In this document: positions 1-22,411 of the stretch, piece by piece
Layout: each line of letters opens with the position of its first letter
Numbering within the stretch: position 1 is the stretch's first letter
Source of the DNA: Gammaproteobacteria bacterium
GTDB taxonomy: Bacteria > Pseudomonadota > Gammaproteobacteria > SZUA-152
Assembly: GCA_050118235.1 (NCBI GenBank)
Contig: JASFLF010000001.1
Location: 1 to 28,394, forward strand
Direction of reading: 5' to 3'
Length of the DNA stretch: 28,394 nucleotides
Notes under the pieces: generated by a model
What the model saw: only the letters and a program-made list of their open reading frames with translations
What the model was told of the DNA's origin: nothing
The model's database searches: none
Position numbers and translations under genes: made by a program

Positions 1-2
1 AC

Positions 3-1897: not shown

Positions 1898-1919
1898 GAG
1901 CGAAGCTGTGCGCCGCGAC
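1894..1919 (+). repeat. Possible degenerate GTAG-type REP element
   Basis: GTAGGAGCGAAGCTGTGCGCCGCGAC at the lplT stop resembles GTAGGAGCG...CGCGA REP families. The stem is imperfect and this is a single copy. Confidence 0.3.
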
Positions 1920-1983
1920 TTGTTGAGATTATTTTCCAGTGCACGTGGCGCCCCATAAGTGCGCTTCCACAAAAACGGATAAT

Positions 1984-3231: not shown

Positions 3232-3318
3232 TCAATAGATACCTTCTTATCAAACTAGGGATTTCCCTTAGACTTCGTTTAATCAATGATAACTTGTATG
3301 TATAATCGTGTGGGACTA

Positions 3319-3357
3319 TCGTATTAAATAGCCGTATTAAATAATCGTATTAAACAC
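3319..3357. repeat. Three tandem 13-bp direct repeats upstream of the M18 aminopeptidase gene
   Basis: TCGTATTAAATAG / CCGTATTAAATAA / TCGTATTAAACAC, with invariant core CGTATTAAA. Confidence 0.75.
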
Positions 3358-3473
3358 TAAAAACGAAATACGTAATATTTATCTTACACACTTGGGGAGT
3401 TTATCCGATCTGGAGACGGCGGGTCTTGAACGGTTGGATAATGAAAGCGCGAACAAAAAAAAGGTGGTAAAAA

Positions 3474-4757: not shown

Positions 4758-4986
4758 TTTCGCCACGGGAGTAGCGCGGCAGCGTTGTCGATAGTATAGT
4801 ACGTGCGATCGCCAGTTCTTGCCCGGGAGGGCAATGGCAAAGCTTGTTTAAATTGACGCAGCGTGCGCTGTGCGCACGTCAAACCGCGGGTTTGCAGATG
4901 ATTATCGTGGGCGCTCTTTCACTGCCTCATTGCGTACGCTATGCATCAGTCATGAGATTTACGACACCCGTTAACGGGAGGTCTCT

Positions 4987-6000
4987 ATGAAACACACACT
5001 CTGTGTCTATCGGGGAGCTGCACTTGCTCGCTATGGTTTCGGTCATGGTCATCCGTTCAGCCCCGATCGGCTTGATGCTTTCTATCAGGAATTCCAACAG
5101 CAACAACTTGCCCATCACCCGGCGATTACGCTATGCGATCCTTGCCAAGCCTCGCAGGAACAGATCGAATGGTTCCATGATCATGACTATGTGGAAAAAG
5201 TAAAACAGCTCTCAGAGGTTGGTTTGGGGTTCCTGGACAATGGTGATACACCGGCTGTCAAAGGAATTTATGAAGCGGCGGCGACCGTGGTGGGTACGGT
5301 GTTGGACGGTATGGAGCGAATCATGGCAGGCCGGTGCGATAAGGTATTTATACCCATCGCCGGCCTGCATCATGCGAGCCGCAACAGTGCCGCCGGGTTT
5401 TGTGTGTTTAACGACTGCGGCGTGGTTATCGAAGCATTGCGCCGCTGTTATAACATAAAGAAAATCGCTTATGTGGATATAGATGCACACCACGGCGACG
5501 GCGTGTTCTACAGTTTCGAAAACGATCCGGATTTGTATTTTGCGGACTTTCACGAAGATGGCCATTACTTATATCCGGGCACTGGCTTTGACGATGAAAC
5601 GGGCAAAGGGCCGGCTAAAGGCACAAAGCTGAATATCAACATGCCTCCGGATTCCAATGATGAGGACTTTTTGGAGAAATGGTCCGAGGTGGAGGCGTTT
5701 TTCGAATCACATGCGCCTGAGTTTGTTTTGTTCCAATGTGGTGCCGACAGCATTGCCGGCGATCCCATTACTCACTTGCGTTATACCCCCCAAAGCCATG
5801 CGTATGCTGCTGAGCGTTTGTGCTATCTGGCGGATAAATACGCCCAAGGGAGGCTGTTGGTCATGGGAGGTGGGGGATATAATCACAAAAGTCTGGCACG
5901 GGCGTGGTGTGCCGTAGTGGATAAGATGGCAAATTATCCTGGCAGTACACTTAAAAAGAATTTTTTACCACGAAGCCATGAAGAGCACGAAGAAATTTAG
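4987..6000 (+). CDS. Histone deacetylase / AcuC-family zinc-dependent deacylase
   Basis: GHGHPF, GLHHA, GFCVFND, VDIDAHHGDG, YPGTG, QCGADS..GDP and GGGGY. GGGAGG ribosome-binding site upstream. Confidence 0.9.
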   Translation: MKHTLCVYRGAALARYGFGHGHPFSPDRLDAFYQEFQQQQLAHHPAITLCDPCQASQEQIEWFHDHDYVEKVKQLSEVGLGFLDNGDTPAVKGIYEAAATVVGTVLDGMERIMAGRCDKVFIPIAGLHHASRNSAAGFCVFNDCGVVIEALRRCYNIKKIAYVDIDAHHGDGVFYSFENDPDLYFADFHEDGHYLYPGTGFDDETGKGPAKGTKLNINMPPDSNDEDFLEKWSEVEAFFESHAPEFVLFQCGADSIAGDPITHLRYTPQSHAYAAERLCYLADKYAQGRLLVMGGGGYNHKSLARAWCAVVDKMANYPGSTLKKNFLPRSHEEHEEI

Positions 6001-6184
6001 ATAAGTATTTTTCGTAGTGGTGAATCCTTTGTCGGTGGGCATTACTCTGTAGGGAATCGAAGGCTAAAGTGGCCACATAAAGGCCCCATTCTCATTGCCT
6101 CGTAACATTTGAAAAAATTTCACATGAAGTGTTTTAAAAGATTTTTTTCTTCGTGTTCTTCATGGCTTGGTGGTGAATGGCAAT

Positions 6185-6220
6185 AAAAAAGCCTCACGGT
6201 GGTGATCCGCAAGGCTTTTT
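6185..6220. terminator. Bidirectional intrinsic terminator-like hairpin
   Basis: AAAAAAGCCT-CA-CGG-TGGTGAT-CCG-CA-AGGCTTTTT: a GC stem with an A-run on the left and a T-run on the right. Confidence 0.7.
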
Positions 6221-6242
6221 GACGTTGTTGAAACGAATGGAC

Positions 6243-6302
6243 TCAGTAACCTGGCGCTTTGGCACCTCCTCCATAAGTCCCACACATACAGTCATTAGAC
6301 AT
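6243..6302 (-). CDS. Putative 19-aa small peptide MSNDCMCGTYGGGAKAPGY
   Basis: Minus strand reads AAAGGAGGTGATCC-T-ATG TCT AAT GAC TGT ATG TGT GGG ACT TAT GGA GGA GGT GCC AAA GCG CCA GGT TAC TGA, followed by a terminator. Too short for the ORF track. Confidence 0.5.
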   Translation of the reverse strand: MSNDCMCGTYGGGAKAPGY

Positions 6303-6303
6303 A

Positions 6304-6317
6304 GGATCACCTCCTTT
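6304..6317 (-). promoter_or_regulatory. Extended Shine-Dalgarno sequence
   Basis: AAAGGAGGTGATCC is the reverse complement of GGATCACCTCCTTT, the conserved 3' end of bacterial 16S rDNA. Confidence 0.7.
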
Positions 6318-6575
6318 CATCAGGGTTACTACAAACCGCTCCGCAAACACCCCTGGAAATGAAGTGGAGCAGCGCCACCAAAATTCTATAAGTAGTAATC
6401 ATAGCCCAGAATCGGAAAATGTAAAACACTAAAAATAATTATAAATAAATTAGTAAGATAGCTCTATTTTGAAGTCGATTAATTGGCACTGTGGTGCTGT
6501 TGTGGGAATACTATGTTGTTGTTGAGCACTATTGGCATCGCCAATGCACTTTGCGTTTAAATTCCAGCAAATGGA

Positions 6576-9500
6576 TTGCGTATGTCTCAACATTTTCAGC
6601 ACAACGCCAAGGATAGGCAAAGTCAGCCGCTGTTTCTTGGCACTTGGATTGTTGTCGTCGTTTTGCTCATCACCGCTTGTACAGGGGGTGGGGGAGATGG
6701 CGGTTCGCCACCAGTCCGTAAATCGGCGACTCCCCAAACGCCGGCCAACCTCAACGCCATTGCCGGCAATCAACAGGTGACACTAACTTGGGGGACAGTG
6801 CCCGACGCATCCGGTTATACGCTGTATTGGAATAATACGCCTGATGTGGCTAAAGATTCTTCCCATGTGGTGCGAAACGTCTCTCCAGGCTATCGGCATC
6901 AGGAATTGACCAATGGTCAGGTTTATTTTTATCGAATTGCCGCCGCTAATGGCAGCGGCGAGAGTTTGCCCTCCGATGAAATCACCGCGATGCCCGGGGG
7001 ACACACACTTGCCGATACGGTGACGGATGCTAATCTTCGCCATTGTTTAACGAACTACAGCACCAGTACACCTGTTTATGCCGATACGATTAGCGGTGAA
7101 GTGGATTGCTCTTACCGCGGTATAAATGATCTTGAGGGCTTGCAGTTTTTAGCGGCACTGACGGCGCTTAATTTAGCCGGTAACAATATTCAAAATATTT
7201 CCGCATTAAGTCAGTTAAGTTCACTGACCACTTTGGACTTAAGTGGTAATCAACTTAACCGTGACGCGGAAGCTGTGTTAGAGGCTTTGTTCCAATTTGG
7301 GGCCTTGACGCAGTTGTCGATAGCAGGCAATCCGCAGCTGTCCTGCGCGTTCATCGATGCTATGCTCGATACCATTTCAGCTACCGATATTTCCGCCAGC
7401 GAAGCTGGTGTGAATTGCGCCGTTTACAGTCAAACACCGGCACCCATAGGTACATTAACGCCGGTGGCCGCTAAAGCCATCGGCGGCAATGAGAAGGTAA
7501 CCGTGACATGGGAGGAAGTGACTGGTGCTTCGCATTACAACATTTATTGGGGTACCGCAAGTGGAATAACCACAGAGTCGGAAAACGTCATCGCCGGTGC
7601 ACATCCGCCCTATGTGCATTCGGGATTGTCTAACGGTGCTACGTATTACTATGTGGTCACCGCGGTGTCCGGTGGCGCTGAAGGGCGGCTATCACCGGAA
7701 GTCTGGGCGACGCCCAGCAGTGAAGGTACGGCCATTGACGGTGTGTTTACCGATACCAACTTGCAATCCTGTGTTTCGGACTACGCGGTCGGCAAAGGGT
7801 GGACATTTACTCATGAGATAACCGGTTACCTGGACTGTTCCTCTCGCGCCATTTCGGATTTGCAGGGCATTGGGCAGTTGCCGGAGCTGTCCCAGTTGAA
7901 CGTCATGAATAACGCCATTGCCGATACCACGCCGCTGGCGACATTGACCAATTTGACGCGGCTGTATATCAGTAACAATCAAATCGATAGTCTAGTTGGG
8001 CTGGCGGATTTGTCATCATTGAATTTCCTTAACTTAGGGCGTAACCGTATCACCACGGTAAATGCGCTGGCGGGATTAGACAATCTCACAGCGTTGTATC
8101 TCAACAGCAATCAAATAGTGGACGCGGGAGCGTTGGCCGGCCTGATAAATTTGCAGATACTGGACTTGCGCGAAAACTCTATAGGTGGCGAGGATATTGG
8201 TAACATCGATGAATTGGCGAGCCTGGTAAATGCAAGCTCTATCTTGTTAGCGGGTAATTACGATATTGCGTGTACGGAACTGGCTGCATTGTTTACCGCC
8301 CTGGGGCCGAATATTGTGGATATCGCTGCCAACGTGGCTAGTATTGATTGTATAGGCGTGCCCAATCCTCCGCTAAATGTCAGTGCGGCCGGCGGCAATC
8401 AGCGCGTTATTCTAACTTGGGATAATATTATCAATGCGTCGGCGTATAACATTTATTGGTCCAATTCGCCCGCGGTAAGCATATCGTCCGCAAACAAGAA
8501 AGCCAATGTTCGCTCCGGCTACCAACACACGGCGCTAACCAATGGGCTTGCGTACTACTATGTAGTGACAGCCGAAAATGCCAGCGGTGAGAGTGAAATA
8601 TCACAGGAAGTTTCCGCCGTGCCTCAGCAAGTGGTGATCGCCGGTTTGTTTGCCGACAGTAATTTACAAACCTGCATAGAAGAGCTGGCTTCGATGAACG
8701 GATGGACTACGGCTGAGCAAGTCAGCGGGGTAGTAAATTGTTCCGCCAGGGCAATTTCCGATGTAAGCGGAATTGAGCATTTAACCGGCGTTACGGCATT
8801 ATCCTTAAATGAAAACAATCTCACCGACATTACCGCCATAGGCTATCTGGATAAGCTTCGTTCGCTGTCGCTGTACCGCAATAACATCACCAGTGTGGAT
8901 GCGCTGGTTAATATGACGGCTTTGCGTGATTTGTTTATTAGCAATAATCTCATCAGCAAAGTACACCCCGTGGGGAGCCTGCCGCAGTTGCAAGTGGTGG
9001 ATTTGCGCAATAACCGGATTGGCAGTAGCGGCAGTGGCGGTGTGGACCAACTCACTTCGCTGACAAACGCCACACTGATCAGCGTGTCTGGCAACCCATC
9101 TATATCGTGTATTGAATTGCAGAATCTGCTGGACACACTGGGTGCCAGTGTAATTGATATGAACAGCGCCATAGCCGGCGAGAATTGCACCCGGCCTTCG
9201 CTAATACCCGCGGGTATCCAGGCAGTGGGCGGTAACAGCCAAATCAGCTTACGCTGGGTTGAAGTGCCGGTGGCTACTGCGTATAACATTTACTGGGCTA
9301 CGGTATCGGGCGTGACACCTGCCAGTGGGCAGAAGGTAACCGTAACGTCACCACAATATGCGCACACCGGTTTGGATAACGATACGACGTATTATTATGT
9401 GATTACGTCGCAGTTGGCCAGTGGACAGAGCGCGCCGTCTGAAGAGCTTGCCGCACGACCTTCGGCCAATGGTGTACCGTTGGCGGGCTTGTTTCCCGAC

Positions 9501-10241
9501 CGGGCATTGGCCAAATGTGTGAATGCGCTTGCCAACAGCAATGGCTGGTCTTATGCGCTGGAGGTCAATGGTATATTAAATTGTTCCGCACAGCAGATTA
9601 CGGACCTGAGCGGCTTGGAACAGTTAAGCAACTTGAGCGTGTTGCGCTTGGGCAGTAATAACATTGAAGATATTTCTTCTGTGGCGTCGCTGGGCAATTT
9701 GACTTTCTTGGACTTATACAACAATGCCATTAGTGACGTCAGTGTTTTGTCTGGTCTTAACACTTTGCGCACCTTGTATCTGCATAATAATAATATTTCC
9801 GATATCAGTGCATTGGCGGGGTTGAACAATCTGGACTATTTGATCCTGGATGAAAACGCGATCAGTGATCCCACGCCGATTACCGGCATCAACACGCTAA
9901 CACGCTTGTTTTTTCGAGCCAATTTGTTAACCGACGTCAACGCTTTTGATCAGTTGACGCAGTTGACAGAGCTTTATTTGAACAACAACAGCATTACCGA
10001 CGTGAGCGCGTTGGCGGGTATGGTGTATTTGCAACAACTGGATTTACGTAATAATCATATTGGTGGTCAAGGGGTGGGCAATGTCGACACGTTATCGAGC
10101 CTCACCAATGTCAGCAAGATACGTCTATCGGGAAACAACTTGATTTCCTGTACCGAGTTAACCTCTTTGATCGCGGTGTTGGGGCCCAACGCTACCGACC
10201 TGGGTGAAGCCCAGCTAGGGGTTAATTGTCAGGCACCGTGA
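6576..10241 (+). CDS. Large lipoprotein with four tandem FN3 + leucine-rich-repeat modules (internalin-like LRRs)
   Basis: Hydrophobic WIVVVVLL, then lipobox ITAC, then a GGGGDGG linker. Four FN3-like units (GNxxVxLxW...YxxYW...YYY/F) are each followed by DxxLxxC...C-capped LxLxxNxI repeats ending GNxxISC...C. Start may be 6576 or 6582. Confidence 0.88.
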   Translation: MRMSQHFQHNAKDRQSQPLFLGTWIVVVVLLITACTGGGGDGGSPPVRKSATPQTPANLNAIAGNQQVTLTWGTVPDASGYTLYWNNTPDVAKDSSHVVRNVSPGYRHQELTNGQVYFYRIAAANGSGESLPSDEITAMPGGHTLADTVTDANLRHCLTNYSTSTPVYADTISGEVDCSYRGINDLEGLQFLAALTALNLAGNNIQNISALSQLSSLTTLDLSGNQLNRDAEAVLEALFQFGALTQLSIAGNPQLSCAFIDAMLDTISATDISASEAGVNCAVYSQTPAPIGTLTPVAAKAIGGNEKVTVTWEEVTGASHYNIYWGTASGITTESENVIAGAHPPYVHSGLSNGATYYYVVTAVSGGAEGRLSPEVWATPSSEGTAIDGVFTDTNLQSCVSDYAVGKGWTFTHEITGYLDCSSRAISDLQGIGQLPELSQLNVMNNAIADTTPLATLTNLTRLYISNNQIDSLVGLADLSSLNFLNLGRNRITTVNALAGLDNLTALYLNSNQIVDAGALAGLINLQILDLRENSIGGEDIGNIDELASLVNASSILLAGNYDIACTELAALFTALGPNIVDIAANVASIDCIGVPNPPLNVSAAGGNQRVILTWDNIINASAYNIYWSNSPAVSISSANKKANVRSGYQHTALTNGLAYYYVVTAENASGESEISQEVSAVPQQVVIAGLFADSNLQTCIEELASMNGWTTAEQVSGVVNCSARAISDVSGIEHLTGVTALSLNENNLTDITAIGYLDKLRSLSLYRNNITSVDALVNMTALRDLFISNNLISKVHPVGSLPQLQVVDLRNNRIGSSGSGGVDQLTSLTNATLISVSGNPSISCIELQNLLDTLGASVIDMNSAIAGENCTRPSLIPAGIQAVGGNSQISLRWVEVPVATAYNIYWATVSGVTPASGQKVTVTSPQYAHTGLDNDTTYYYVITSQLASGQSAPSEELAARPSANGVPLAGLFPDRALAKCVNALANSNGWSYALEVNGILNCSAQQITDLSGLEQLSNLSVLRLGSNNIEDISSVASLGNLTFLDLYNNAISDVSVLSGLNTLRTLYLHNNNISDISALAGLNNLDYLILDENAISDPTPITGINTLTRLFFRANLLTDVNAFDQLTQLTELYLNNNSITDVSALAGMVYLQQLDLRNNHIGGQGVGNVDTLSSLTNVSKIRLSGNNLISCTELTSLIAVLGPNATDLGEAQLGVNCQAP

Positions 10242-10414: not shown

Positions 10415-10885
10415 TTAGTTGACGTGGCTGCCCATTTTGCGTTTGGCAAAATAATGTTGATGATATTCCTCCGCGGGATAGAACTTTTGCAGCGGGCGAA
10501 TATCGGTTACGATAGTTCTGGATTCGGTTAATTGGTTTTGCAACCGTTCTTTGGATGCAATAGCCGCGACTCTCTGCTCTTCGTTGCTATACAATATCAT
10601 CGATCGATACTGAGAACCAACGTTTGCCCCTTGGCGGTTCACCGAAGTTGGGTCGTGGCAATTCCAGAATATATGTAACAATTGCTTATAACTGATAACG
10701 GCAGGATCAAACCGTACTTGGAGGGCTTCAGCGTGGCCGGTGGTGCCACTACAAATGTCTTGATAGGAGGGATTAGGGTATTCACCGCCAGTGTAACCTA
10801 CCGTGGTTGAACAGATTCCCTGAAGTCGACTGAAAGTTTCCTCTAAACACCAGAAACAACCAGCCGCAAAAGTTGCTTTCTCCAT
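10415..10885 (-). CDS. msrA: Peptide-methionine (S)-S-oxide reductase
   Basis: AAGCFWC, GYTGG, TGHAE, HDPT, RQGANVGSQYRS and AEEYHQHY. Confidence 0.95.
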   Translation of the reverse strand: MEKATFAAGCFWCLEETFSRLQGICSTTVGYTGGEYPNPSYQDICSGTTGHAEALQVRFDPAVISYKQLLHIFWNCHDPTSVNRQGANVGSQYRSMILYSNEEQRVAAIASKERLQNQLTESRTIVTDIRPLQKFYPAEEYHQHYFAKRKMGSHVN

Positions 10886-11102: not shown

Positions 11103-11684
11103 TTATTTCGTTGGTTGAAGAGTGAATTTCGCGATTTCGGTGTATTCCGCACCGGTTGGCTTGAGTTCGCTTTTGAACAGAATGACATGGTCTATGGGCA
11201 TTGTTGTTGTATCAGTCACTGCTAATAAACCCTCCAGGCCTTTTACAGGCTTGCGGAAACGACCCACCGTGATATGACCCCGGAACGGCCTTTCTTCGGG
11301 AGTGACGCCCGCCTCAACCGCCAGCGCTTCCATGGCTTCGGCTATCTGTTGCAACACAGCGTTTTTGTGTACTAGCGACGCCAGCATTCTCGCTTTCTTG
11401 ACGCTGGGAAAAGGCTGGGGGGAGGTGATCGTGACTGTGAAGACGGATTGACTTTCCAAAAAAATTTTTAAGCCGGCTTGGATTTGTTGTATTTGTTCCA
11501 AGTACAAGTCTCCAAGAAAGCGCATCGTAATGTGTATGTTGGATTCGGCTGTCCAGCGGATATGCTTAATCCAGGGATCTTTGCTATGTTGGTGTTTGAA
11601 ATTGTCTATAAATGCCAAGGCCGTTTCGCTGAGCTTTATGCCGATAAATGTGCGGAATTTTTCGGTGTCGGTAGTCATGGACAA
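11103..11684 (-). CDS. thpR: RNA 2',3'-cyclic phosphodiesterase (2H phosphoesterase, LigT-like)
   Basis: Two HxT motifs (HITMRFLG, HITVGR), RTFIGI and LFKSEL. Confidence 0.9.
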   Translation of the reverse strand: MSMTTDTEKFRTFIGIKLSETALAFIDNFKHQHSKDPWIKHIRWTAESNIHITMRFLGDLYLEQIQQIQAGLKIFLESQSVFTVTITSPQPFPSVKKARMLASLVHKNAVLQQIAEAMEALAVEAGVTPEERPFRGHITVGRFRKPVKGLEGLLAVTDTTTMPIDHVILFKSELKPTGAEYTEIAKFTLQPTK

Positions 11685-11730: not shown

Positions 11731-12570
11731 TTACTTCTTGCGGCCTGCCCTAAAATAGTCGGTATTGTCATAATAAGCTTCCTCGTTATTATTGTCCCAT
11801 TCGGGCATGCCCAATAGAGGAAAGGGTTGCAAGTGTTTAGGGCTAGGGTAGTGATTATTTTCAAATGCCTGAGCTGTCATGCAATCCAAATAGCTGAGCT
11901 GCTGTGGTAACGGCCACTGGAAGCAGCTCGCATCAACATGAAACAAAGCAGCATGTGCCGTCAAACCGATATAGGGATTGAGCGCTTTTTCATAAACCGC
12001 ATGGCCGAATACAAAACAACGCAAGCGCGTTGTTAGTTCGTGACGGCGCTGCCAGAATAAATCTTTCCAACGGAATTCGCGAATACAATCCAACAACGAG
12101 TTATCGAAAGAGACTACTATCGCGCCACATTCATCGAATTGCGTCAACACATTTTCCATCGGAGTTCTTTGTGTACTGTCCGGTTTGGATTGTTTTCGTT
12201 GGCGAATGGCTTGATAGTGTTTGGCGTTTAACAGCGCTTTGGTCTTCGGGAAGGTATTCCACACCAAAACTTGAAAAAAATCATGCCAGTTCTCCGAGCG
12301 AGTTTGCACTTCACCGGTTAAATAAATCCGTGGTTCATAGTCATCCTGCCAATGCAGCGGTTTGGCGGCTTGTGGCACAAACTGAATTGCGGCGCCCCCC
12401 AAGGAGTGGATGGGGACAGGTTGATGTGCCAACAAGACTTGGTAATCCTCCAGGCTTGGCCAATGCTCGGATTTGCAGGATAATAAATCTGCCTGGGGTT
12501 GAAGTGGTAAATACAGCGGCGAAATTGCCATGAAATGGGGATTCCACTGATCAAGCGTTGTTTTTGCCAT
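11731..12570 (-). CDS. DUF3025-like conserved protein
   Basis: YEPRIYLTGEVQTRSENWHDFF, TQFDECG, VFGHAVYEK and PFPLLGMPEW match my recollection of this family. Confidence 0.7.
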   Translation of the reverse strand: MAKTTLDQWNPHFMAISPLYLPLQPQADLLSCKSEHWPSLEDYQVLLAHQPVPIHSLGGAAIQFVPQAAKPLHWQDDYEPRIYLTGEVQTRSENWHDFFQVLVWNTFPKTKALLNAKHYQAIRQRKQSKPDSTQRTPMENVLTQFDECGAIVVSFDNSLLDCIREFRWKDLFWQRRHELTTRLRCFVFGHAVYEKALNPYIGLTAHAALFHVDASCFQWPLPQQLSYLDCMTAQAFENNHYPSPKHLQPFPLLGMPEWDNNNEEAYYDNTDYFRAGRKK

Positions 12571-13060: not shown

Positions 13061-13987
13061 CTAGCTTTTAATGCGCTCAAGTTCGGCTAACACGTTATCT
13101 AATGGTGGTTCAATGATTGATTGCTCAATCGTTTCACTATCCAAAATCGGGTCATTAAGAACCATTTCGTCAAAAACGGTGTCGCCATCTTTTGCTGGTA
13201 ACTTCTGGCTGAGATTTTTGAAATCGAATAATTTGTCGTCCAGTAAATGCGACGGCGTTATGTTTTGTAAGGCTTGGAAGATGATTTCGGTTCGCCCTGG
13301 GTATTGTTTCTCCCAGTCGTGTAACATGGTTTTGATGTGTTTGCGCTGTAAATTTTGTTGTGATCCGCAGAGATTGCAGGGAATAATGGGGAATTCCATG
13401 GCTCTGGAATAACGGGCTATGTCTTTTTCAGCGCAATATGCCAGGGGGCGGATCACGGTATGGACGCCATCGTCGGTGAGCAATTTCGCCGGCATGGCTT
13501 TAAGTTTAGCGCCGAAAAACATATTTAAAAACAGCGTTTCCACAATGTCATCGCGGTGATGACCTAAGGCAATCTTGGTGGCACCCAATTCATTGGCAAC
13601 CCGATAGATGATGCCACGCCGCAGACGCGAGCATAACGAACACAAAGTTTTGCCCGCGGGTATTTTGTCAACCACAATGGAATAAGTATCTTCGGTCTCA
13701 ATGTGATAACGCACGCCGAGGGATTGCAAATAATTAGGCAGGACATCAGCTGGAAATCCCGGTTGTTTTTGATCCAGGTTCATGGCAATGATTTCAAAAT
13801 CAATGGGGGCGCGTTCCCTCAATGCCGTGAGGATTTTTAACAATGTATAAGAGTCCTTGCCGCCACTGAGACAAACCATGACCACGTCAGATTGCTCGAT
13901 CATATTAAAATCGCCAATGGCTTTGCCTGTCAGGCGTTCCAGGCGTCTTTCCAGTCTTTTGAAATTGGTGGAACCTTTCATATTCAA
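13061..13987 (-). CDS. ttcA: tRNA 2-thiocytidine(32) synthetase
   Basis: PP-loop [31 protein letters not shown] and [10 protein letters not shown]. Confidence 0.95.
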
Positions 13988-14141: not shown

Positions 14142-14576
14142 TTAGCCGTGATGAAACAACCGTTGCCACCAGCGGCGACGGCTTTGCGGCGGTGGAAACG
14201 CATGGGGTAAGTCTTCGGGCTTGGTTTGAGACAGCACCCATCCCGGTAGCGGTGGGTGATCGCTAAATCCGCAACTCACGCCCAGGTTATTGGGATCAAA
14301 GATTTTTATAAAAGTGGGATTTTGCAATTCGTCAGCATAAACAATACCACAATAGTCTTCTTTGTGTTCGGATCGCAACAATTCATCTATTTCACTGATA
14401 AACCGCTGCAGCGCGTCCGAGGATGAAGGTTCCGTGGGTGGTGTTTCCCCCACTTGATATATAAACCATCGTTGGTCCTGGTGTTTGCGTACTGTGTTCC
14501 ACAGTTCATCCAGTTGTGGCCACCTAAGTACACCGTAAAAACTACCTTTGAATTGTTCTAAGAATTTTTTCGCCAT
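14142..14576 (-). CDS. Conserved hypothetical protein
   Basis: The 144-153 aa ORF reads as a real protein (FKGSFYGVLRWPQLDELW, EHKEDYCGIVYAD, FDPNNLGVSCG, C-terminal RRWWQRLF). Start is 14576 or 14603. Confidence 0.7.
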   Translation of the reverse strand: MAKKFLEQFKGSFYGVLRWPQLDELWNTVRKHQDQRWFIYQVGETPPTEPSSSDALQRFISEIDELLRSEHKEDYCGIVYADELQNPTFIKIFDPNNLGVSCGFSDHPPLPGWVLSQTKPEDLPHAFPPPQSRRRWWQRLFHHG

Positions 14577-14662
14577 GTATTGTGTATAACCTCGATGTTT
14601 CACTGAATTATCAATTAATTACCCTTCCATTAACTATTTGATCAGTTCCTTATGCAAACTTT

Positions 14663-14798: not shown

Positions 14799-15980
14799 AT
14801 GAATGAAGCGGCCATAAAACTTGCTGTGACTGGAATGGACCATAGATCACAACTTTTATTTACTAAAACAGTGCAATTGCAGTTACAAGGAATTTGCCGA
14901 ATTGTCGACGTGCAGGAAGCGGAAGTGGTTCTGATCGACATGGATTCGGCGAATTCCGAAGAATATTGGATTTCATTGAAAGATAATTTTCCAGAACTAC
15001 CGGTAATTGCTCTGTCGATTCGGCCGGTCAATGAAAAAAACACACTTTATTTGCGTAAGCCTATAAAAATTAACTCCTTGATAACTACGTTGCGAATATT
15101 GTTTCCAAAACGATTTATGGCGAAGGGAAACGAATTCAACAAGCAAAAAAATGTAGACGGGCAGTGTTCAAATAAGCAAGACAAGTCGTTAAATGCGAGA
15201 ACAACTATCGCAGATGTATTCAATAACACAGTGGATAAATCTTCGAATGTCGTTGCACTTTCAGACAAGGTATCGCCCGGAGAATGCATACTCGATGTGT
15301 TCGATGCTTCCTCTCATTTGATTTACTATGTCATGCAAGCTAGTTTGCAGGCAAAGGCGTTGAAAAAACTCGCCAAAATTTCACTGTGGAATGGCAGGAT
15401 CATTTTATGTAACTTTAGTCCCAACGTCATAATTACAAATGTTTCAGAAGGAATGCTGAGAAGTCTGGCCATCGTTCAATTGAATGAGAGTCAAACGAAA
15501 ATAACCATAGAGCATGTCGAACCGGACATATTGGATACGATTAATCCCAAGAAAGATCCGGCGTATAAAGAATTGAACGTGGAAAGTTTTATCTGGCAAT
15601 TGGCGTTGTTGACAGCAAGGGGAAGAGTGCCTTTGGAACTGCACGACAATATGTTTTTTGTTGATAAGCCGGTGTACATGGAATATTGGCCGAATTTAAC
15701 GCGACTTATGCCAGTACCCTATGCACAGCAGATAACGGCGTTGCTGGTTTTGCAGCCCAGGACTTTTAAAGAAATCTCTAAGACCTTGGCGATCGATGTA
15801 AAGCATGTCGCAGACTTATTCTTTGCGGCCGCGATGATAGGGTGTGCCGGTCAGGCTAAACGACCAGCCGATAAATTATTCGCACCGTTCGAGGTGGAAC
15901 AACACAAACACCGCAAAGTACTGTCTTCCATCATGAACAGACTACGCAGTATTGCTATGGGCAACGCGCAAAGTGCGTAA
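14799..15980 (+). CDS. Hypothetical protein with N-terminal receiver-like domain and C-terminal winged-helix-like region
   Basis: The N-terminus has VVLIDMD, PVIALS and YLRKP at receiver beta3/beta4/beta5-like spacing. The later part has FIWQLALLTARGRVP, YWPNLTRL and an HTH-like RTFKEISKTLAIDVKHV. Confidence 0.65.
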   Translation: MNEAAIKLAVTGMDHRSQLLFTKTVQLQLQGICRIVDVQEAEVVLIDMDSANSEEYWISLKDNFPELPVIALSIRPVNEKNTLYLRKPIKINSLITTLRILFPKRFMAKGNEFNKQKNVDGQCSNKQDKSLNARTTIADVFNNTVDKSSNVVALSDKVSPGECILDVFDASSHLIYYVMQASLQAKALKKLAKISLWNGRIILCNFSPNVIITNVSEGMLRSLAIVQLNESQTKITIEHVEPDILDTINPKKDPAYKELNVESFIWQLALLTARGRVPLELHDNMFFVDKPVYMEYWPNLTRLMPVPYAQQITALLVLQPRTFKEISKTLAIDVKHVADLFFAAAMIGCAGQAKRPADKLFAPFEVEQHKHRKVLSSIMNRLRSIAMGNAQSA

Positions 15981-15994
15981 ATATTGGAGAGATC

Positions 15995-16531
15995 ATGAGT
16001 TCACATAAAATTATTTTTACCGGTCCGGTCGGTGCGGGTAAAACCACTTCCATTGCGGCCATCAGCGATGTCGAGCCGTTCGTTACCGAACAAATTGCCA
16101 CAGATGCTACCAAGAACAGGAAAGAACAAACTACAGTAGCGATGGACTATGGCATGTTAAAGCTGGAGAACAACGAGCGAATCCATTTATACGGTACGCC
16201 GGGGCAGGAACGATTTAATTTTATGTGGGATATTTTGACCGACGGCGGAGTTGGGCTTATTTTATTGATCGATAATAAGCGAGCGAATCCCTTGGATGAT
16301 TTGTCCTTTTTTCTCCAGTCTTTTAAAAATTTTATTGAAGAGACTGCCGTTGTCGTCGGAGTAACCCGCATGGACATTGCATGCAAACCCACTTTGGAAG
16401 ACTATCGCAGGGTCATGAGGGAACTGAACATGAATATCCCAATCTTCGAAGTTGATGCTCGAGAAAGAAAAGACGTTATCTATCTGGTTCAAACCCTATT
16501 GTATTGTCTTGATCCCAGGATTGCGGCTTAG
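15995..16531 (+). CDS. Small GTPase, MglA / conservon CvnD (ATP/GTP-binding) type
   Basis: G1 GPVGAGKTT, G2 TTVAMDYG, G3 GTPGQERFNFMW, G4 TRMD, G5 DAR. GGAGA ribosome-binding site. Confidence 0.9.
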   Translation: MSSHKIIFTGPVGAGKTTSIAAISDVEPFVTEQIATDATKNRKEQTTVAMDYGMLKLENNERIHLYGTPGQERFNFMWDILTDGGVGLILLIDNKRANPLDDLSFFLQSFKNFIEETAVVVGVTRMDIACKPTLEDYRRVMRELNMNIPIFEVDARERKDVIYLVQTLLYCLDPRIAA

Positions 16532-16565
16532 TGAAAGTTATCGAAATGAGCGGTGTAGATTAATT

Positions 16566-17900
16566 GTGAGTGAATTCGTACTAGTTTTACAGGACTACGG
16601 GGTTGGTTTTGGTGAGAAAATCATCTTAAGCTCTGTCAATCTCGAAATTCCCGAACGGGGTGTTTTTTTGTTGATGGGGCCGGCTGGTACAGGCAAGTCA
16701 ACACTGCTAAGAACAATCGCCGGCATAAATGACGCAAATCCATCCCTGCGGACCTGGGGTTCAGCGAGCTATGCGGGAGAGCCTTTAAGTGAAAGTGAAC
16801 TGCCGGTGCTGGTGGCTCAAAACACAAAATTATTGCTCGCCAATGTGTTGGACAACGTTATTCACGACTTACCCGAACGACGGTCACTGTCAAGAATTCA
16901 ACAAATCGACATGGGGAAAAGACTATTGGTACATAGCGGATTGAGTGAACTCTCGGAAGATCTGGAAAAAAGCGTGGTGGATCTACCGCTTCACTTGCAA
17001 AGACACCTGGCTATTGCTAGATCCGCTGCCGCCAATCCTAAGTTACTTCTAATTGATGAGCCCACTACCGGAGTCGAGGAACAGGTTTGTAAATCATTGA
17101 TTGAATATATTAAGCAAGAATCCGAACGCCGGGCGGTTCTTGTCGTCGTGCATAATCAGAAACACGCGAATTTGTTTAAAGGAAAAATGGCGCTATTAGC
17201 AGGCGGATGGGTCCATGAGAGTAAGGATACATTGCGTTTTCTTAGTAATCCGGAATCCTCTGCCGGCAAATGTTTTGTGCAGACCGGATCGTGTGATGTG
17301 CCATCACCTTCCGCAAAACTGGAAGAATTAAGTGATGAGGCAATCAGCAAATACAATCCTCCGCCACTATGTGAGGCGGCAAAACAATATGTCAGTGACG
17401 CGTTTGGCCCGCGTAATTTTCTATGGCTGAAAAAAGGTCGTTTGGCAGGCACCCCTAAGCCCGGATTGTTAACCGATATTGATCATGATTTGAAAGCACT
17501 TAAAAGAGTTGGAGTGACAGTATTGGTAACGTTGACTGAGTCGCCCATGGACAAAGAAATTCTGGATGAATACGAGATTCGTAATGTGTTTTTCCCAATT
17601 GATGACATGGGGTCTCCCAATATCGAGGATGCCAAAAAACTGTGTTATCGAATCAGCCGACTGTTGCAAAAAGATGAAGTGGTTGCTATGCATTGTAAGG
17701 CCGGATTAGGAAGGACCGGAACAATGTTGGCTGCGATGTTGATCTGGGATGGGCTGTCCGCTTTAGAAGCCTTAGAAAGTACTCGACGCATTGAACCGAG
17801 ATGGGTGCAATCTGATGACCAGATAGTATTTTTAGAGGAGTTCGAAAACAGTGTTGACGCCGATAGAGGAAGTTTAACAAAAGTATCGTCTTGTGTGTGA
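16566..17900 (+). CDS. Fusion of an ABC-type ATPase domain and a dual-specificity/tyrosine (CX5R) phosphatase
   Basis: Walker A GPAGTGKST, Q-loop LVAQ, Walker B LLLIDEPTTG and H-loop VVVHN. C-terminal FPIDDMGSP and HCKAGLGRTG. Likely start is the GTG at 16566, because the ORF-track start overlaps the GTPase gene. Confidence 0.88.
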   Translation: MSEFVLVLQDYGVGFGEKIILSSVNLEIPERGVFLLMGPAGTGKSTLLRTIAGINDANPSLRTWGSASYAGEPLSESELPVLVAQNTKLLLANVLDNVIHDLPERRSLSRIQQIDMGKRLLVHSGLSELSEDLEKSVVDLPLHLQRHLAIARSAAANPKLLLIDEPTTGVEEQVCKSLIEYIKQESERRAVLVVVHNQKHANLFKGKMALLAGGWVHESKDTLRFLSNPESSAGKCFVQTGSCDVPSPSAKLEELSDEAISKYNPPPLCEAAKQYVSDAFGPRNFLWLKKGRLAGTPKPGLLTDIDHDLKALKRVGVTVLVTLTESPMDKEILDEYEIRNVFFPIDDMGSPNIEDAKKLCYRISRLLQKDEVVAMHCKAGLGRTGTMLAAMLIWDGLSALEALESTRRIEPRWVQSDDQIVFLEEFENSVDADRGSLTKVSSCV

Positions 17901-18087
17901 AGTGTGGAAATTTTGTTGTGTAAAACAGTAAGTAGTGGAAACTAGTTGAATAAAAAATTGGATATAGTTAAGTAACAAAAAAGTAAAAGTAATATTAACC
18001 TATCAAAAAACTATTCTATTGGACGATAAATAGATAGTTGTGAAAAACAACCAAACAAATACGTTGGGCTCAAATAGGAGTAATATA

Positions 18088-18492
18088 ATGTCATTAGATC
18101 AAGTATTAAACGAAGCGATGAAACAGGTTCCGGAATGTGTCGCTGCAGGTTATGTGGATTTATCTACTGGTATGTTGCTGGGCGTCAAAACTGTCGACTC
18201 CCATCCTGCCGAAGTCTTGGAAATAGTCGCAGCGGCGACTTCGGATATGTTTCAGGGGGCTAATGTTACATTGATCGAAAACATGTTTAAAAAGGCTCGA
18301 GGCACATCGGATGATGCACGGCACTACTTCCAAGAGATGGTTGTAATGAGCGAGAACTTGCTGCATTTGTTTATGCGATGTAAAGGAAATGAAGACCATG
18401 TTGTGGTTTTCGTATGTCGGAAATCCGCAAATATGGGTATGGTATTGACGAAAGCAAAAACTGCGTTGCCGTCGCTGGAGGCTGCTGTATAA
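18088..18492 (+). CDS. Roadblock/LC7-like protein (divergent)
   Basis: AGGAG ribosome-binding site at 18076-18080 precedes the ATG at 18088. The 134 aa have a roadblock-like helix/strand pattern (VAAGYVDLSTGMLLG, EMVVMSENLLHLF, NMGMVL). Confidence 0.7.
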   Translation: MSLDQVLNEAMKQVPECVAAGYVDLSTGMLLGVKTVDSHPAEVLEIVAAATSDMFQGANVTLIENMFKKARGTSDDARHYFQEMVVMSENLLHLFMRCKGNEDHVVVFVCRKSANMGMVLTKAKTALPSLEAAV

Positions 18493-18659
18493 AGGCACAG
18501 TGTTGAAAGAGGGTTATCAGAGTATTGTGATTGGATTACTTATGCAATACTCTTTTAACCAATTAGCGAACTAAGTGGTGGACAGGTAAGCTTTTGATTT
18601 ATAAAAAGTGTAAACAGATAGACATTCTTATTTCTGAAATTTATAAGGAAAAGTAGATC

Positions 18660-19070
18660 ATGGCATCTGCAACAAGTTCGATAGAATCGGGGCGTAGTGA
18701 AGTTGCCATTGATAAAATGATTCGCCCCATATTACGAAGGCTAAATAGCGCTTCCGGACAAATTGAGGCGTCGTCCGTCATGTCGAGAGATGGAATAGGG
18801 GTGGCGTCAGTATTAGCCGATGGTGTAGATCCAGATCGTTTAGGGGCTATGTGTGCATCATTGTTGTCTCTGGCGGATACCACTGCGAAAGAATTGCAGA
18901 GGGGAAAAGTCAACCAGCTAGTATTGGAAGGAGAGAACGGCTACGTATTGATTATCCATGTCGGCACCAAAGCCGTGTTGGGTATCGTTACGCGAAAGAA
19001 TGCCAACCTGGGAATGGTGTTTGTGGAAGCGAAGAAAACCGCTGAAGAGATTCTTAGAATACTTCCATAG
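18660..19070 (+). CDS. Roadblock/LC7 (MglB-like) protein
   Basis: SSVMSRDG, DRLGAMCASLLSLA, LVLEGENGYVLI and NLGMVFVE are typical of roadblock/LC7 proteins. Confidence 0.88.
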   Translation: MASATSSIESGRSEVAIDKMIRPILRRLNSASGQIEASSVMSRDGIGVASVLADGVDPDRLGAMCASLLSLADTTAKELQRGKVNQLVLEGENGYVLIIHVGTKAVLGIVTRKNANLGMVFVEAKKTAEEILRILP

Positions 19071-19104
19071 TGATTTTCCTAAAGGTGAAAGAGCAAGTGG
19101 AGAA

Positions 19105-19515
19105 ATGGTTATGTGTGGTTCTACGAGTAAAAATAAAGCGAATATAAATTGTGAAGAGGGTAGACGCCTAGGCTGCGGAACATTCTGTTGCCGATTGCTG
19201 GTTCGGTTGGATCCCAATGAAATGGAACCTACAGATGATGGAATGCCATCTAAAGGCTTTGTAGACAAACTGCCCGATGGTAATTGCATCCACTTCCACC
19301 CAGACAAGCAGATTTGTAAAATTTGGCACAAACGCCCCAGAGTATGCCGAGAATACGAGTGTAATTCGGATTTTTTATTGCAGGTTGTACTAAGAAACGG
19401 TTTTAGTACGTTAGGGAAACTCGCAAAACAAGCGTCGAAGTCCTTCATACCCAAAGAAACCTACATCGATATTCCATTGCTTGACGACGACCATAACGAT
19501 CAAACACAGTCTTAG
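19105..19515 (+). CDS. YkgJ-family cysteine-cluster (Zn or Fe-S chelating) protein
   Basis: C...GCGTFCC, GNCIHF, CKIWHKRPRVCREYEC. GGAGA precedes ATGs at 19105 and 19111; the ORF-track start overlaps the roadblock gene. Confidence 0.8.
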   Translation: MVMCGSTSKNKANINCEEGRRLGCGTFCCRLLVRLDPNEMEPTDDGMPSKGFVDKLPDGNCIHFHPDKQICKIWHKRPRVCREYECNSDFLLQVVLRNGFSTLGKLAKQASKSFIPKETYIDIPLLDDDHNDQTQS

Positions 19516-19559: not shown

Positions 19560-20012
19560 CTAGTTGATCGTTTTCTGGGTTTCTATTAGATGAACCATTT
19601 TCCTATAGTGCACACCTTCTATATGCCTAGACTCATCCGTCAATTCAAAATTTTTCGATTGGTAAAATCGCGTGGTTGGCTCAACGGCATTGACCCACAC
19701 GCTTGGTAAATGCAACGTCTTGGCGATGTGCAGTAGGTAAATGAGGATGGCTTTGCCAATCGTTCGGCCCCGCCAAGAGGGTAATATGGCTATTTGCCCA
19801 ATCTCTCCATTTGGGTGTATGCAACCGGTTCCGATGGTGTTGCCATCACCGTCGTATGCAAGCACGTGATAACAATCGGGATCCGAATCGCTAATGATTT
19901 GATTGCGAGAAAAACCGAATTCTTTAACAAACACCGTTTCGCGTATGTGTTGAATCGTGTTTTGGTGATCTTTCCATTTGGAAAGATAAAAGCTGTAACC
20001 GGGTTTAGACAT
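19560..20012 (-). CDS. GNAT family N-acetyltransferase (YjcF/ElaA-like)
   Basis: IRETVFVKE, IGQIAILPSWRGRTIGKAIL (acetyl-CoA motif A) and FYQSKNF. Confidence 0.85.
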   Translation of the reverse strand: MSKPGYSFYLSKWKDHQNTIQHIRETVFVKEFGFSRNQIISDSDPDCYHVLAYDGDGNTIGTGCIHPNGEIGQIAILPSWRGRTIGKAILIYLLHIAKTLHLPSVWVNAVEPTTRFYQSKNFELTDESRHIEGVHYRKMVHLIETQKTIN

Positions 20013-20218: not shown

Positions 20219-22411
20219 TCATTGCAACGAAAAATAAAATACCGCACCTTCACCCGGCTTGCTTTCTGCCCATATTTTACCACCATGGCGGTCAATGATT
20301 CTTTTGACGGTGGCCAGGCCAATGCCGGTTCCGGGGAATTCGTCAATACCGTGTAAACGCTGAAACGCACCAAATAGCTTTTCCGAGTATTGCATGTTAA
20401 ATCCAACGCCATTATCTTTTACAAAGTATATGCAATGAGCATTATCCAGCCTGCAGCCGCACTCCACCATGGCGTCGGTGTTTTGGCCGGTATATTTCCA
20501 CGCGTTATCCAAAAGATTGTCCATGACAATTCGTAGCAATCTTTGATCGCCTTTGGTATTCATGTTGGGCTCAATTTTTATGGTGATCTTGCGTTCCGGG
20601 TATAGTTCCGCTAAAGATGCTGCCGCTTCTTCGGCGATATCGCTCAAATTAACCGGTGCAATTAATAGCTTGTGACGGGATACGCGCGACAATAGCAGTA
20701 TATCATCAATAAGTTGCGCCATACGCTGGGCTGCCTTTCGTACCCGGTTTAGATAGTCGATACCGTGTTCGTCCAGTTTATCCTGGTAGTCTTCCAATAA
20801 TAACTGACTGAAACCATCGATGCTTCTTAAGGGTGAGCGTAGGTCGTGGGAAACGGAATAACTGAAGGATTCCAGTTCCCGTATCGCACCTTCCAATTCC
20901 GCGGTTCGTTCCGAAACCATGTGTTCCAGTTGCTCACGGTAGCGCTTCAGTTCTGACTCAGTTTGCTTGCGCTGTTTTATGTCACGTACGAACACCACGC
21001 CGGAAGGTTCGCCATCCCATTGGCTGATAAATGCGGTCAGTTCCACCGGAACCGGTTCGCTGGATTTTTTATCGGTAAACAACGTTTCGTATTGGATAGG
21101 CTCATTCTGACCTTTTAGGCGTCGCTTGAATCGTTGTACTACGTTATCTTTTTCGCTGGGGTGTACCACATAATCGAGATCCGATCCTATGATTTCGTCA
21201 ACCGTGGTATTTAATATCTCGGCCATGTGCTGATTGGCGAAAACATGTTTGCCTTTTTTGTTGACCAAAATGCCATCGGTGGCGTTGTTGGCCAGAGAGC
21301 GCAAATTTTCCTCGCTTTCTTTAATTCGTTTTTCATTTCGGATACGATCACTAATGTCCGTTGTAATCCCACATATCGCATAAACATCATTGTTTATATC
21401 GAACAGACAAAATTTTGTTGAGATAAACGTCTTTAGCTCTTCTCCGTGAGGGACAATTTCTTCAATCTGTTGAATGGACTTGCTGGCTATCACTTTTTCG
21501 TCATTCGCCCGTAATTTATAGGCTATTTCTTGCGGAAATAACTCATAATCCGTTTTTCCCAGGAGGTGTTCCTCAGTGCTATCGAAAAAATCTGCAAACT
21601 GCTTATTAGCCAGCAAATATTTACCGTCCTTGTCTTTGGCGTAAATGATCGTTGGAGAATTATCCAAGATGGCTTGCAATAAATTTTCGTTTTCTCTTAA
21701 TGAGTCCTCTCCATTGCGTAAAGCAGTAAACAACTTGCTAATTGTCGCGCTCAGCTCTCCCACTTCGCCGGTAAAGCATGGAATAGGCGTAATTATACGA
21801 TGATTATCAATGTACTCAGTAACCGCGGTGGAAAGAGTCTTCAAATTCTTAGTTAAGGATGATAATAAAATGTAGAGAATAATAACCGTGGCCGTTACGA
21901 TGACCAGGGCGTCAATAATGTCTCTTTTTCGCACACCGGATACCAGGTGGTTTATGTCATTGGTGCTGAATTCCAAATGGAGTTCACCTACTGGAGTGTT
22001 GTTCTCCCGAAGTGGGAATACCACGTGAAACGAATCTTTGCCACCCAGGTTTTTTATGTTGCTCAACAAATCTCGATTGATGGGTGTGGATTGCCTGGCA
22101 ATGCCTGCTTGAGCAATAGTCTCATGGTCCGCCGATTTAACCGCGATGAAATTAGCGTTATGAGATTTACCAACACGCTTTACAATTTCAAGAATTTCCT
22201 CAATATCGTTATGTCTTATCGCTGAGACCAAAGTCGATGATATGAGCGTTGAAAATTCCGATATTTCTTCTTGTTTTTGTAATAGTAACTGATCCTTTGT
22301 GAGGTTGATGTCGTTCCATACCAGCAGGGAAAAAAGCACCATTTCTACAAACGCAATAGTAATGATCAATTTGGTGACTAGAGATACATCGCGATTGGAA
22401 AGTAATTGCAT
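20219..22411 (-). CDS. Membrane sensor histidine kinase with two PAS domains (orphan)
   Basis: Two hydrophobic segments and a HAMP-like linker. PAS regions ILDNSPTIIYAKDKDGKYLLAN and LANNATDGILV. H-box YSVSHDLRSPL, N-box NLLDNAWKY, G boxes VKDNGVGF and GTGIGLA. Confidence 0.92.
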   Translation of the reverse strand: MQLLSNRDVSLVTKLIITIAFVEMVLFSLLVWNDINLTKDQLLLQKQEEISEFSTLISSTLVSAIRHNDIEEILEIVKRVGKSHNANFIAVKSADHETIAQAGIARQSTPINRDLLSNIKNLGGKDSFHVVFPLRENNTPVGELHLEFSTNDINHLVSGVRKRDIIDALVIVTATVIILYILLSSLTKNLKTLSTAVTEYIDNHRIITPIPCFTGEVGELSATISKLFTALRNGEDSLRENENLLQAILDNSPTIIYAKDKDGKYLLANKQFADFFDSTEEHLLGKTDYELFPQEIAYKLRANDEKVIASKSIQQIEEIVPHGEELKTFISTKFCLFDINNDVYAICGITTDISDRIRNEKRIKESEENLRSLANNATDGILVNKKGKHVFANQHMAEILNTTVDEIIGSDLDYVVHPSEKDNVVQRFKRRLKGQNEPIQYETLFTDKKSSEPVPVELTAFISQWDGEPSGVVFVRDIKQRKQTESELKRYREQLEHMVSERTAELEGAIRELESFSYSVSHDLRSPLRSIDGFSQLLLEDYQDKLDEHGIDYLNRVRKAAQRMAQLIDDILLLSRVSRHKLLIAPVNLSDIAEEAAASLAELYPERKITIKIEPNMNTKGDQRLLRIVMDNLLDNAWKYTGQNTDAMVECGCRLDNAHCIYFVKDNGVGFNMQYSEKLFGAFQRLHGIDEFPGTGIGLATVKRIIDRHGGKIWAESKPGEGAVFYFSLQ

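Follow-up and report, generated by a model that had tools for sequence, protein, structure and literature searches.

What kind of system is encoded by the six co-oriented genes that occupy positions 14799-19515 of a 28,394-nt stretch of DNA (hereinafter, the window; contig JASFLF010000001.1) from a gammaproteobacterium of the lineage SZUA-152? The source is a metagenome-assembled genome (MAG) of 696 contigs, 76% complete, and all six open reading frames (ORFs), g1 to g6, lie on the + strand, as verified in the window. A first-pass annotation, made from this DNA, had described them as a receiver/winged helix-turn-helix (wHTH) protein, an MglA-type GTPase, a fusion of an ATP-binding cassette (ABC) ATPase with a phosphatase, two roadblock proteins and a Cys-cluster protein, and had proposed that together they form an undescribed system. 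The number and orientation of the genes, the gaps of 14 nt (g1-g2) and 34 nt (g2-g3), and the six product assignments are borne out by the present analysis, the roadblock fold of g4 as a probable one. The claim of novelty holds in part: the core of the locus belongs to a class that has been defined previously, and the new element is an insert, consisting of the ABC-phosphatase fusion and g4, between the GTPase and the MglB-type gene. We conclude, with a probability of about three in four, that the locus encodes a Group 3 MglA-type GTPase signalling system of a distinct, widespread subtype that was not found described in the searched literature; instead of a six-gene system wholly without precedent, it appears to be a five-gene unit built on a known Group 3 core.

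The small GTPase g2 (15995-16531, + strand; 178 aa) matches the Pfam families ATP_bind_1, Ras and Roc and has 5412 homologues, many of them annotated from gammaproteobacterial MAGs; the nearest relative of solved structure is MglA of Thermus thermophilus (E 1.6e-5). The sequence boxes G1 (GPVGAGKTT), G3 (YGTPGQERF), G4 (TRMD, which lacks Lys) and G5 (EVDAR) are essentially invariant in 55 orthologues, in which D154 and R156 are invariant and R125 is nearly so. Prokaryotic MglA homologues have been split into five groups, among which Group 3 is almost exclusive to beta- and gammaproteobacteria and is characterised by a G4 box that often lacks Lys, deviating from [NT]KxD, and by the G5 box DAR (Wuichet and Søgaard-Andersen, 2015; PMC4316618). 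[quoted passage not shown] The present locus has the same features: the names and record titles of the homologues include Gammaproteobacteria, Thiobacillus, Marinobacter and similar; G4 and G5 are TRMD and EVDAR; the neighbouring g1 combines a receiver-fold N-terminus with a wHTH-containing C-terminus; and roadblock proteins are represented by g5, recognised by Pfam and Protein Data Bank (PDB) searches, and probably by g4, for which an Atlas model is available from a near-identical cluster. The core thus appears to be a Group 3 MglA system, a category already defined bioinformatically. The main text of PMC4316618 makes no mention of a phosphatase and uses the term ABC for excluded transporter sequences only, and full-text literature searches for the combination of an ABC-phosphatase with a Group 3 GTPase returned nothing relevant.

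The component that sets this subtype apart, g3 (16566-17900, + strand; 444 aa), matches ABC_tran, PTP-SAK, Tc-R-P and DSPc in Pfam: residues ~1-240 correspond to a soluble ABC-type ATPase and residues ~275-430 to a Cys phosphatase similar to DUSP23 and to archaeal protein tyrosine phosphatases (HCKAGLGRTGT). In the ATPase domain, the Walker A residues G38, P39, G43 and K44, the Q-loop residue Q85, the Walker B pair D164-E165 with the catalytic Glu, and H196 of the H-loop are invariant in the 55 orthologues, but the LSGGQ signature is missing, its place being taken by LPLHLQR in the window protein and by the consensus LxLAxQR in the family. The phosphatase domain retains the HCX5R(S/T) P-loop (here HCKAGLGRT) and the general-acid Asp of Cys phosphatases; D347, H376, C377 and R383 are invariant in the 55 orthologues, within the motifs HCxAGxGRTGT and, upstream, PxxDMxxP. 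A profile search against the PDB places this domain closest to a dual-specificity phosphatase (DSP) family protein (4.6e-32), followed by Tk-PTP, DUSP23, SsoPTP, Cdc14 and PRL, and from its residues the phosphatase is predicted to be catalytically intact. The interdomain linker (~238-250; 17285-17300) has the consensus GSCxVPSP, in which a Gly-x-Cys (G241, C243) is invariant; the conserved C243 lies outside both catalytic domains. The fusion family comprises at least 659 clusters at 90% identity, nearly all of which are 434-473 aa long and possess both domains.

Gene order in relatives indicates which of the six genes belong together. A one-genome-per-species collection was scanned with two phosphatase motifs, which matched 540 stretches, 488 of them confirmed as relatives; the neighbourhoods of the best 80 loci were then searched with profiles of the six window proteins, each gene being scored only where the flank of the locus was long enough. 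The g4 gene lies directly downstream of g3 in every locus scored (77/77) and the GTPase gene directly upstream of it in 64 of 73; g1 is found upstream of g3 in 52/63 loci and g5 downstream of g3/g4 in 60/73. The order g1-g2-g3-g4-g5 is nearly universal among the best 80 loci, recurs in metagenome contigs that encode an 86%-identical GTPase and in dozens of beta- and gammaproteobacterial genomes, and is far beyond chance. By comparison, g6 is present within 4.2 kb downstream in just 14 of 60 loci, so the conserved unit consists of five genes, g1 to g5, rather than six, and g6 is, on the present sequence sample, a facultative accessory gene. The expectation that all six genes co-occur in other genomes is accordingly strongly upheld for five of them.

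These data bear directly on the possibility that the six genes are not one system and that g3 is either the ATPase of an ordinary ABC transporter or a neighbour unrelated to the rest. The best NCBIfam match of the N-terminal half of g3 is the transporter ATPase family PstB, and the two long AT-rich spacers of the locus, between g3 and g4 (17901-18087; 187 nt, GC content 0.27) and between g4 and g5 (18493-18659; 167 nt, GC content 0.32), could hold separate promoters. However, the PstB match, at 107 bits, is far under the cut-off of 343, the replacement of LSGGQ is family-wide, a permease family is neither found in the window locus nor recurrent around the 80 loci, no binding-protein family recurs there, and the linkage of g3 to g4 and to the GTPase is close to constant. 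As far as comparative genomics reaches, linkage and the missing permease refute this reading, to which we assign a negligible probability. Within the spacer between g3 and g4, no terminator-like site was found on the + strand, and in most relatives this gap is under ~100 nt, compared with 187 nt in the window.

As a Group 3 subtype, the module is widespread but not dominant. Carriers of the fusion include Thiohalophilus thiocyanatoxydans, Halospina denitrificans, Marinobacter spp., Microbulbifer spp., Exilibacterium, Oceanobacter, Thiobacillus denitrificans, Sulfuritalea, Gallionellaceae, a Planctomycetales isolate and a Polyangiaceae MAG. Of 295 high-quality genomes sampled evenly across the class, 46 encode a Group 3-type GTPase and 5 the fusion; these five all possess the GTPase as well, with the two genes adjacent in four; the ABC-phosphatase form is a minority subtype that accounts for roughly one in nine Group 3 systems. 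Within the family to which the window belongs, a genome may carry up to three types of loci. Type A is the one described here; type B encodes a ~250-aa TPR-like protein, a g1-like protein, the GTPase, a 211-aa protein, in some loci a protoglobin, and a roadblock protein; and type C encodes a g1-like protein, the GTPase, a roadblock protein and a g4-like protein. In the GTPase tree, a clade of unresolved branching order unites types B and C with some of the type A sequences, and the tree resolves neither the monophyly of the ABC-phosphatase loci nor the order in which the locus types arose; across families, gene order is stable and largely congruent with lineage.

Several loci depart from the common arrangement. 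Two Marinobacter MAGs (L115 and L125) have two copies of the fusion, organised as g3-g4-g5 followed, ~4 kb further on, by g1-g2-g3-g4. Outside Pseudomonadota, the Polyangiaceae MAG (L124) and Planctomycetales bacterium 10988 (L126) contain g3-g4 pairs with no GTPase gene detected within flanks of 9 kb; a linked GTPase may not be indispensable to the ATPase-phosphatase/roadblock pair. At locus L008 (6845-8558), from a lineage sister to the window GTPase (72% identity), only the g1-GTPase pair is present, followed by a sulfatase gene on the opposite strand, the downstream genes having been lost or relocated. A locus from a MAG labelled Rikenellaceae (L093) suggests mis-binning rather than transfer, because its GTPase nests among Thiobacillus sequences in the tree, and a further one, labelled Zixiibacteriota (L071), is a 1.5-kb contig with g3 only.

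The first protein of the unit, g1 (14799-15980, + strand; 393 aa), has no significant match to any Pfam family, PF00072 included, and its domains were delineated in an AlphaFold2 (AF2) model with an overall predicted local distance difference test score (pLDDT) of 87. Residues 1 to ~102 adopt a receiver (CheY-like) fold, for which Foldseek retrieved only receiver domains from the PDB (HupR, DivK, CheY and the CikA pseudo-receiver; TMt 0.5-0.65), and the residues expected of a receiver are largely conserved among 76 relatives (D14 in 64, D47 in 62, D49 in 73, S73 in 58, K87 in 68 and P88 in all 76). In the model, the domain combines the CheY fold, acidic pocket, Ser/Thr and Lys of receivers, with helices alpha2 and alpha4 short or absent. 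A disordered linker (~120-158) leads to the C-terminal module (~160-393), which, modelled separately, reaches a pLDDT of 95 and consists of a roadblock-like alpha/beta part, a wHTH (residues 309-352 form a helix-helix-helix-wing element) and a long terminal helix. Foldseek yielded no counterpart of this model in the PDB (best E 0.06); the weak top matches, FAM91A1 and SEA/GATOR subunits, were not relied on as relatives. Among the Atlas models, clusters of PatA_N (PF14332) are similar to the C-terminal module, with template modelling (TM) scores of 0.53-0.61, suggesting a PATAN-like domain; PF14332 is matched by none of the 76 relatives and nowhere in the window's own genome, and the relatives give weak wHTH matches (HTH_20, HTH_5, PF0610-like). 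At E<=1e-3, the g1 family amounts to 896 clusters. About half of the ABC-phosphatase loci encode a g1 homologue of no more than ~200-240 aa, equivalent to the C-terminal module by itself, and no consistent separate receiver gene was found upstream of these shortened forms. The receiver, through which input had been proposed to arrive, therefore cannot be the general input; from the distribution of the sequences, it is an optional input and not a defining one.

The last two genes of the unit encode roadblock proteins of unequal clarity. The affiliation of g5 (18660-19070, + strand; 136 aa) with the Roadblock/LC7 family, MglB/CvnB type, is apparent both from the Pfam match to Robl_LC7 (3.5e-15; 55.9 bits, cut-off 23) and from profile matches in the PDB, namely 7f8m (1.6e-26), 9jue (1e-22), CvnB5 (3leq; 1.5e-12), MglC and MglB. 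The companion g4 (18088-18492, + strand; 134 aa) has no match in Pfam or NCBIfam and no meaningful match in a sequence profile search of the PDB. Comparison with the g5 family using hhalign gave 90% probability over only the C-terminal 38 residues (strand-helix), and the Atlas model of a near-identical g4 cluster (feature score 0.98) has TM scores of 0.74-0.90 to Roadblock/LAMTOR2 clusters, which points to a divergent roadblock fold for g4. Within the module, conservation is highest in this protein (mean column identity 71% and 38 invariant columns over 55 orthologues); across these beta- and gammaproteobacterial orthologues, C17, H79, H93 and C110 are invariant and H39 is nearly so. Such a set of Cys and His residues is unusual for a roadblock protein and would suit a site for metal, heme or redox chemistry. 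In three loci of genus g7, from the same family, g5 was not found next to g4.

With all components in hand, the locus could alternatively be read as a proteobacterial conservon, g5 representing CvnB, g2 CvnD and the wHTH part of g1 the exchange factor CvnC, with an unlinked kinase replacing CvnA. The profile match of g5 to CvnB5 agrees with this, as do the GTPGQxRF form of the G3 box and the DAR form of G5, which are common to Groups 2 and 3, and a match to DUF742 in one of the 76 g1 relatives (E 0.0017). Moreover, a 730-aa PAS-PAS-HisKA-HATPase_c kinase without a receiver, encoded on the - strand (20219-22411) and converging on the locus 700 nt past g6, could in principle phosphorylate the g1 receiver. 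Nevertheless, the operon's six genes include no CvnA-type kinase, as the first-pass annotation had pointed out; no homologue of the downstream kinase is present among the called genes on the contigs of the closest relatives (L005-L007); DUF742 (PF05331) is unmatched in the window proteins and in the window's own genome; the hosts are Pseudomonadota, and PMC4316618 keeps Group 2, the conservon group, apart from Group 3; and the conservon papers describe no ABC-phosphatase partner. We regard a conservon as improbable.

The gene neighbourhoods suggest what a Group 3 system of this subtype might respond to, and this pointer could not have been seen from the window alone. Downstream of 43 of 60 loci there are genes for Bac_globin, Fer2-globin or Fer2-FNR-globin proteins, in which a truncated globin (Bac_globin) stands by itself or is fused either to a 2Fe-2S ferredoxin or to a ferredoxin plus an FNR-type reductase; it is the most frequent additional neighbour, ahead of g6. 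Such proteins are encoded at L056 (10594-12186), L130 (10447-11310), L076 (10030-10668) and 45 further loci, and in the paralogous type B loci a protoglobin is encoded instead (L042, 7821-8411). In addition, genes for GGDEF/EAL proteins recur in 16 loci and another cluster of signalling genes, exemplified by an HD-GYP protein, in 18. From the globin context, Group 3 GTPase systems may receive a gas or redox signal through heme.

The same neighbourhoods argue against a polarity and type IV pilus switch akin to Myxococcus MglA/MglB, with g1 in the role of RomR and the phosphatase as a secondary regulator. An MglA is indeed the GTPase of solved structure nearest to g2, and roadblock partners are present; PATAN-domain regulators of cyanobacteria are reported in a preprint to act on the type IV pilus motor (10.1101/2021.06.11.447907); and for the Group 3 host Snodgrassella, alleles of mglB and transposon sequencing (Tn-seq) data have been connected with colonisation and perhaps with motility by pili (PMC11112851). 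Yet no pilus or gliding family is recurrent in the 80 neighbourhoods, where globin/ferredoxin and cyclic di-GMP (c-di-GMP) genes recur instead, Group 3 and Group 1 GTPases differ in G4 and G5, and the evidence from Snodgrassella, which is the only functional information on Group 3 in the searched literature, is indirect. A dedicated polarity switch is accordingly judged unlikely.

For the Group 3 subtype described here, we infer the following mechanism. The GTPase g2 would alternate between GTP and GDP states, and g4 and g5 would bind it as homo- or heterodimers that set the rate of hydrolysis or exchange, on the model of MglB, MglB/MglC and CvnB. A further partner of the GTPase, whether exchange factor, scaffold or effector, would be the PATAN-like module of g1, which in the window genome may be modulated by phosphorylation or metal binding at the receiver domain. 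The enzymatic arm would be g3, docked via g4. Rather than powering transport, its ABC domain would probably serve as a slow dimerisation switch gated by ATP, because Walker A, the Q-loop, Walker B-Glu and the H-loop are intact but the signature is degenerate. Through this switch and the docking, dephosphorylation of a protein target would be made to depend on whether the GTPase carries GTP or GDP. The physiological input may be O2, NO or redox state, as suggested by the context, in relatives, of globin, 2Fe-2S/FNR-globin, CxxCxxCC and c-di-GMP genes together with the oxidation-sensitive catalytic Cys, and the output a behavioural or lifestyle decision. A four-chain complex prediction of g2, g4, g5 and g3, run with order-matched 55-row alignments and without controls, scored 0.01 against a mark of 0.32 and speaks neither for nor against this scheme.

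Some observations weigh against the proposed reading or parts of it. The assignment to Group 3 is made by motifs and gene context; the fold of g4 is that of the model of a near-identical cluster and not of the window protein itself; and the PATAN likeness of g1 is a similarity of models within the TM range given above. No globin gene lies beside the window locus, and the window's own genome, at its 76% completeness, holds only fragments of globin-related genes elsewhere. Furthermore, the substrate of the g3 phosphatase could be a small molecule instead of a protein.

A more ambitious proposal, to which we give only tentative credence, is that the g3 fusion and g4 represent a new class of effector or regulator of bacterial Ras-like GTPases, in which a redox- or gas-gated GTP state directly controls protein dephosphorylation. 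If true, this would be a bacterial G-protein-to-phosphatase pathway without known precedent; were the coupling real, GTP state, ATP binding and protein phosphorylation would be joined in one operon, to which the sensing of O2, NO or redox state might also be tied. Bacterial Ras-like GTPases are understood in two settings only, Myxococcus polarity and, partly, actinobacterial conservons, and Group 3 systems, present in about one in six sampled genomes of the class, have no known biochemistry. The subtype offers a concrete handle in the form of an assayable predicted Cys phosphatase and ATPase hard-wired to the switch, in hosts that can be cultivated (Marinobacter, Thiobacillus denitrificans, Microbulbifer and Halospina).

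The accessory gene and the gene starts call for brief comment. For g3, a longer ORF begins with TTG at 16452, but the ATG at 16566 is the most likely start, as judged from the resulting 444 aa, which fits the length of the orthologues. For g4, the ORF lister places the start at the GTG at 18040, but the most likely start is the ATG at 18088, which is preceded by AGGAG and gives 134 aa. The g6 product (19111-19515, + strand; ~134 aa), a putative Zn/Fe-chelating protein, matches Pfam CxxCxxCC (PF03692) with 27 bits against a cut-off of 23. Its frame is open from 18958, overlapping g5 by 113 nt, but relatives are 128-137 aa long and align from residue 52 of the query, for which reason the start is most likely the ATG at 19111 or 19105.

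The locus was said, by eye, to be AT-richer than the aas-lplT region, and it does have a lower GC content than positions 1-10000 of the window (0.431 vs 0.499); the immediate flanks, at 0.447 and 0.430, are equal to it. Island-like composition is therefore lacking, and an island acquired by horizontal gene transfer was rejected. The locus has no match in a plasmid collection, and near-identical DNA was found in wetland, marine-sediment and rhizosphere metagenomes. Four metatranscriptome libraries, from wetland and rhizosphere, contain fragments of g1-g6 with at least 99% identity, and the g2/g3 junction is spanned by one contig; because carry-over of DNA is possible, these matches are a hint of expression and prove neither transcription nor a single transcript.

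Composition also matters for an anti-phage or inter-bacterial conflict system, a reading that could be prompted by the phosphatase domain of g3: PTP-SAK denotes a DSP-PTPase domain found in 'Swiss Army Knife' proteins, Tc-R-P derives from polymorphic toxin systems, and PADLOC reports weak matches to the ABC ATPase fold (mad3, 1.6e-12). These PADLOC matches are generic P-loop/ABC stretches confined to g3, the other five proteins being unmatched, and a defence system was rejected on this account. The composition equal to that of the flanks, the absence of the locus from the plasmid collection, the stable and largely lineage-congruent gene order, and neighbours that are housekeeping or signalling genes likewise make a role in conflict very improbable.

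The remaining neighbours in the window are ordinary. Convergent to g6 on the - strand is a gene for a GNAT acetyltransferase (19560-20012), which is also present on the metagenome contigs with the 86%-identical GTPase (L005, 10184-10636) and may be a conserved neighbour within the window's genus only. Upstream are genes for methionine sulfoxide reductase A (10415-10885), a LigT-like 2H phosphoesterase (11103-11684), a DUF3025 protein (11731-12570) and a PP-loop ATPase (13061-13987), and a 153-aa ORF on the - strand (14142-14603) for which no family was found.

Among known systems, the Group 3 MglA loci are the closest to the present one, sharing beta- and gammaproteobacterial hosts, the non-canonical G4, the DAR G5, the receiver-like/wHTH neighbour and one or two MglB-type roadblocks; the locus differs from them in having the ABC-ATPase/Cys-phosphatase fusion and g4 between the GTPase and the MglB-type gene, and in that half of the carriers of the subtype have lost the receiver domain. 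Conservons and related AGPS systems (CvnA-CvnD; MfpB-D) likewise combine a GTPase, a roadblock partner and a wHTH-type third protein in one operon and have been proposed to form a G-protein-like regulatory complex, which provides a working analogy; unlike them, the locus lacks a membrane histidine-kinase-like CvnA and a recognisable DUF742, belongs to another phylum, and includes a phosphatase and an ABC ATPase. The MglA-MglB systems of Myxococcus and Thermus (with MglC, RomR-RomX and RomY) also employ a Ras-like GTPase, roadblock-fold dimers and a receiver protein in the circuit, but their GTPases are of Group 1, mglB is the only partner gene beside mglA, no phosphatase is involved, and their output is the polarity of motility machines, of which there is no sign at this locus. 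The PATAN response regulators (PatA, PixG) combine a receiver with a roadblock-like domain that has a helical/wHTH insertion, and they are known to be associated in genomes with MglB homologues; in g1, the domain order is reversed, with the receiver first, and the likeness is one of predicted structures (TM 0.53-0.61). Finally, with DUSP23/VHZ, SsoPTP and Tk-PTP, the g3 phosphatase shares the HCX5R(T) P-loop, the upstream general-acid Asp in PxxDxxxP and the similar size of a small DSP, but in g3 this domain sits behind an ABC-type ATPase and carries the extra invariant motifs SDxFGPRxFLWL and EPRWVQS.

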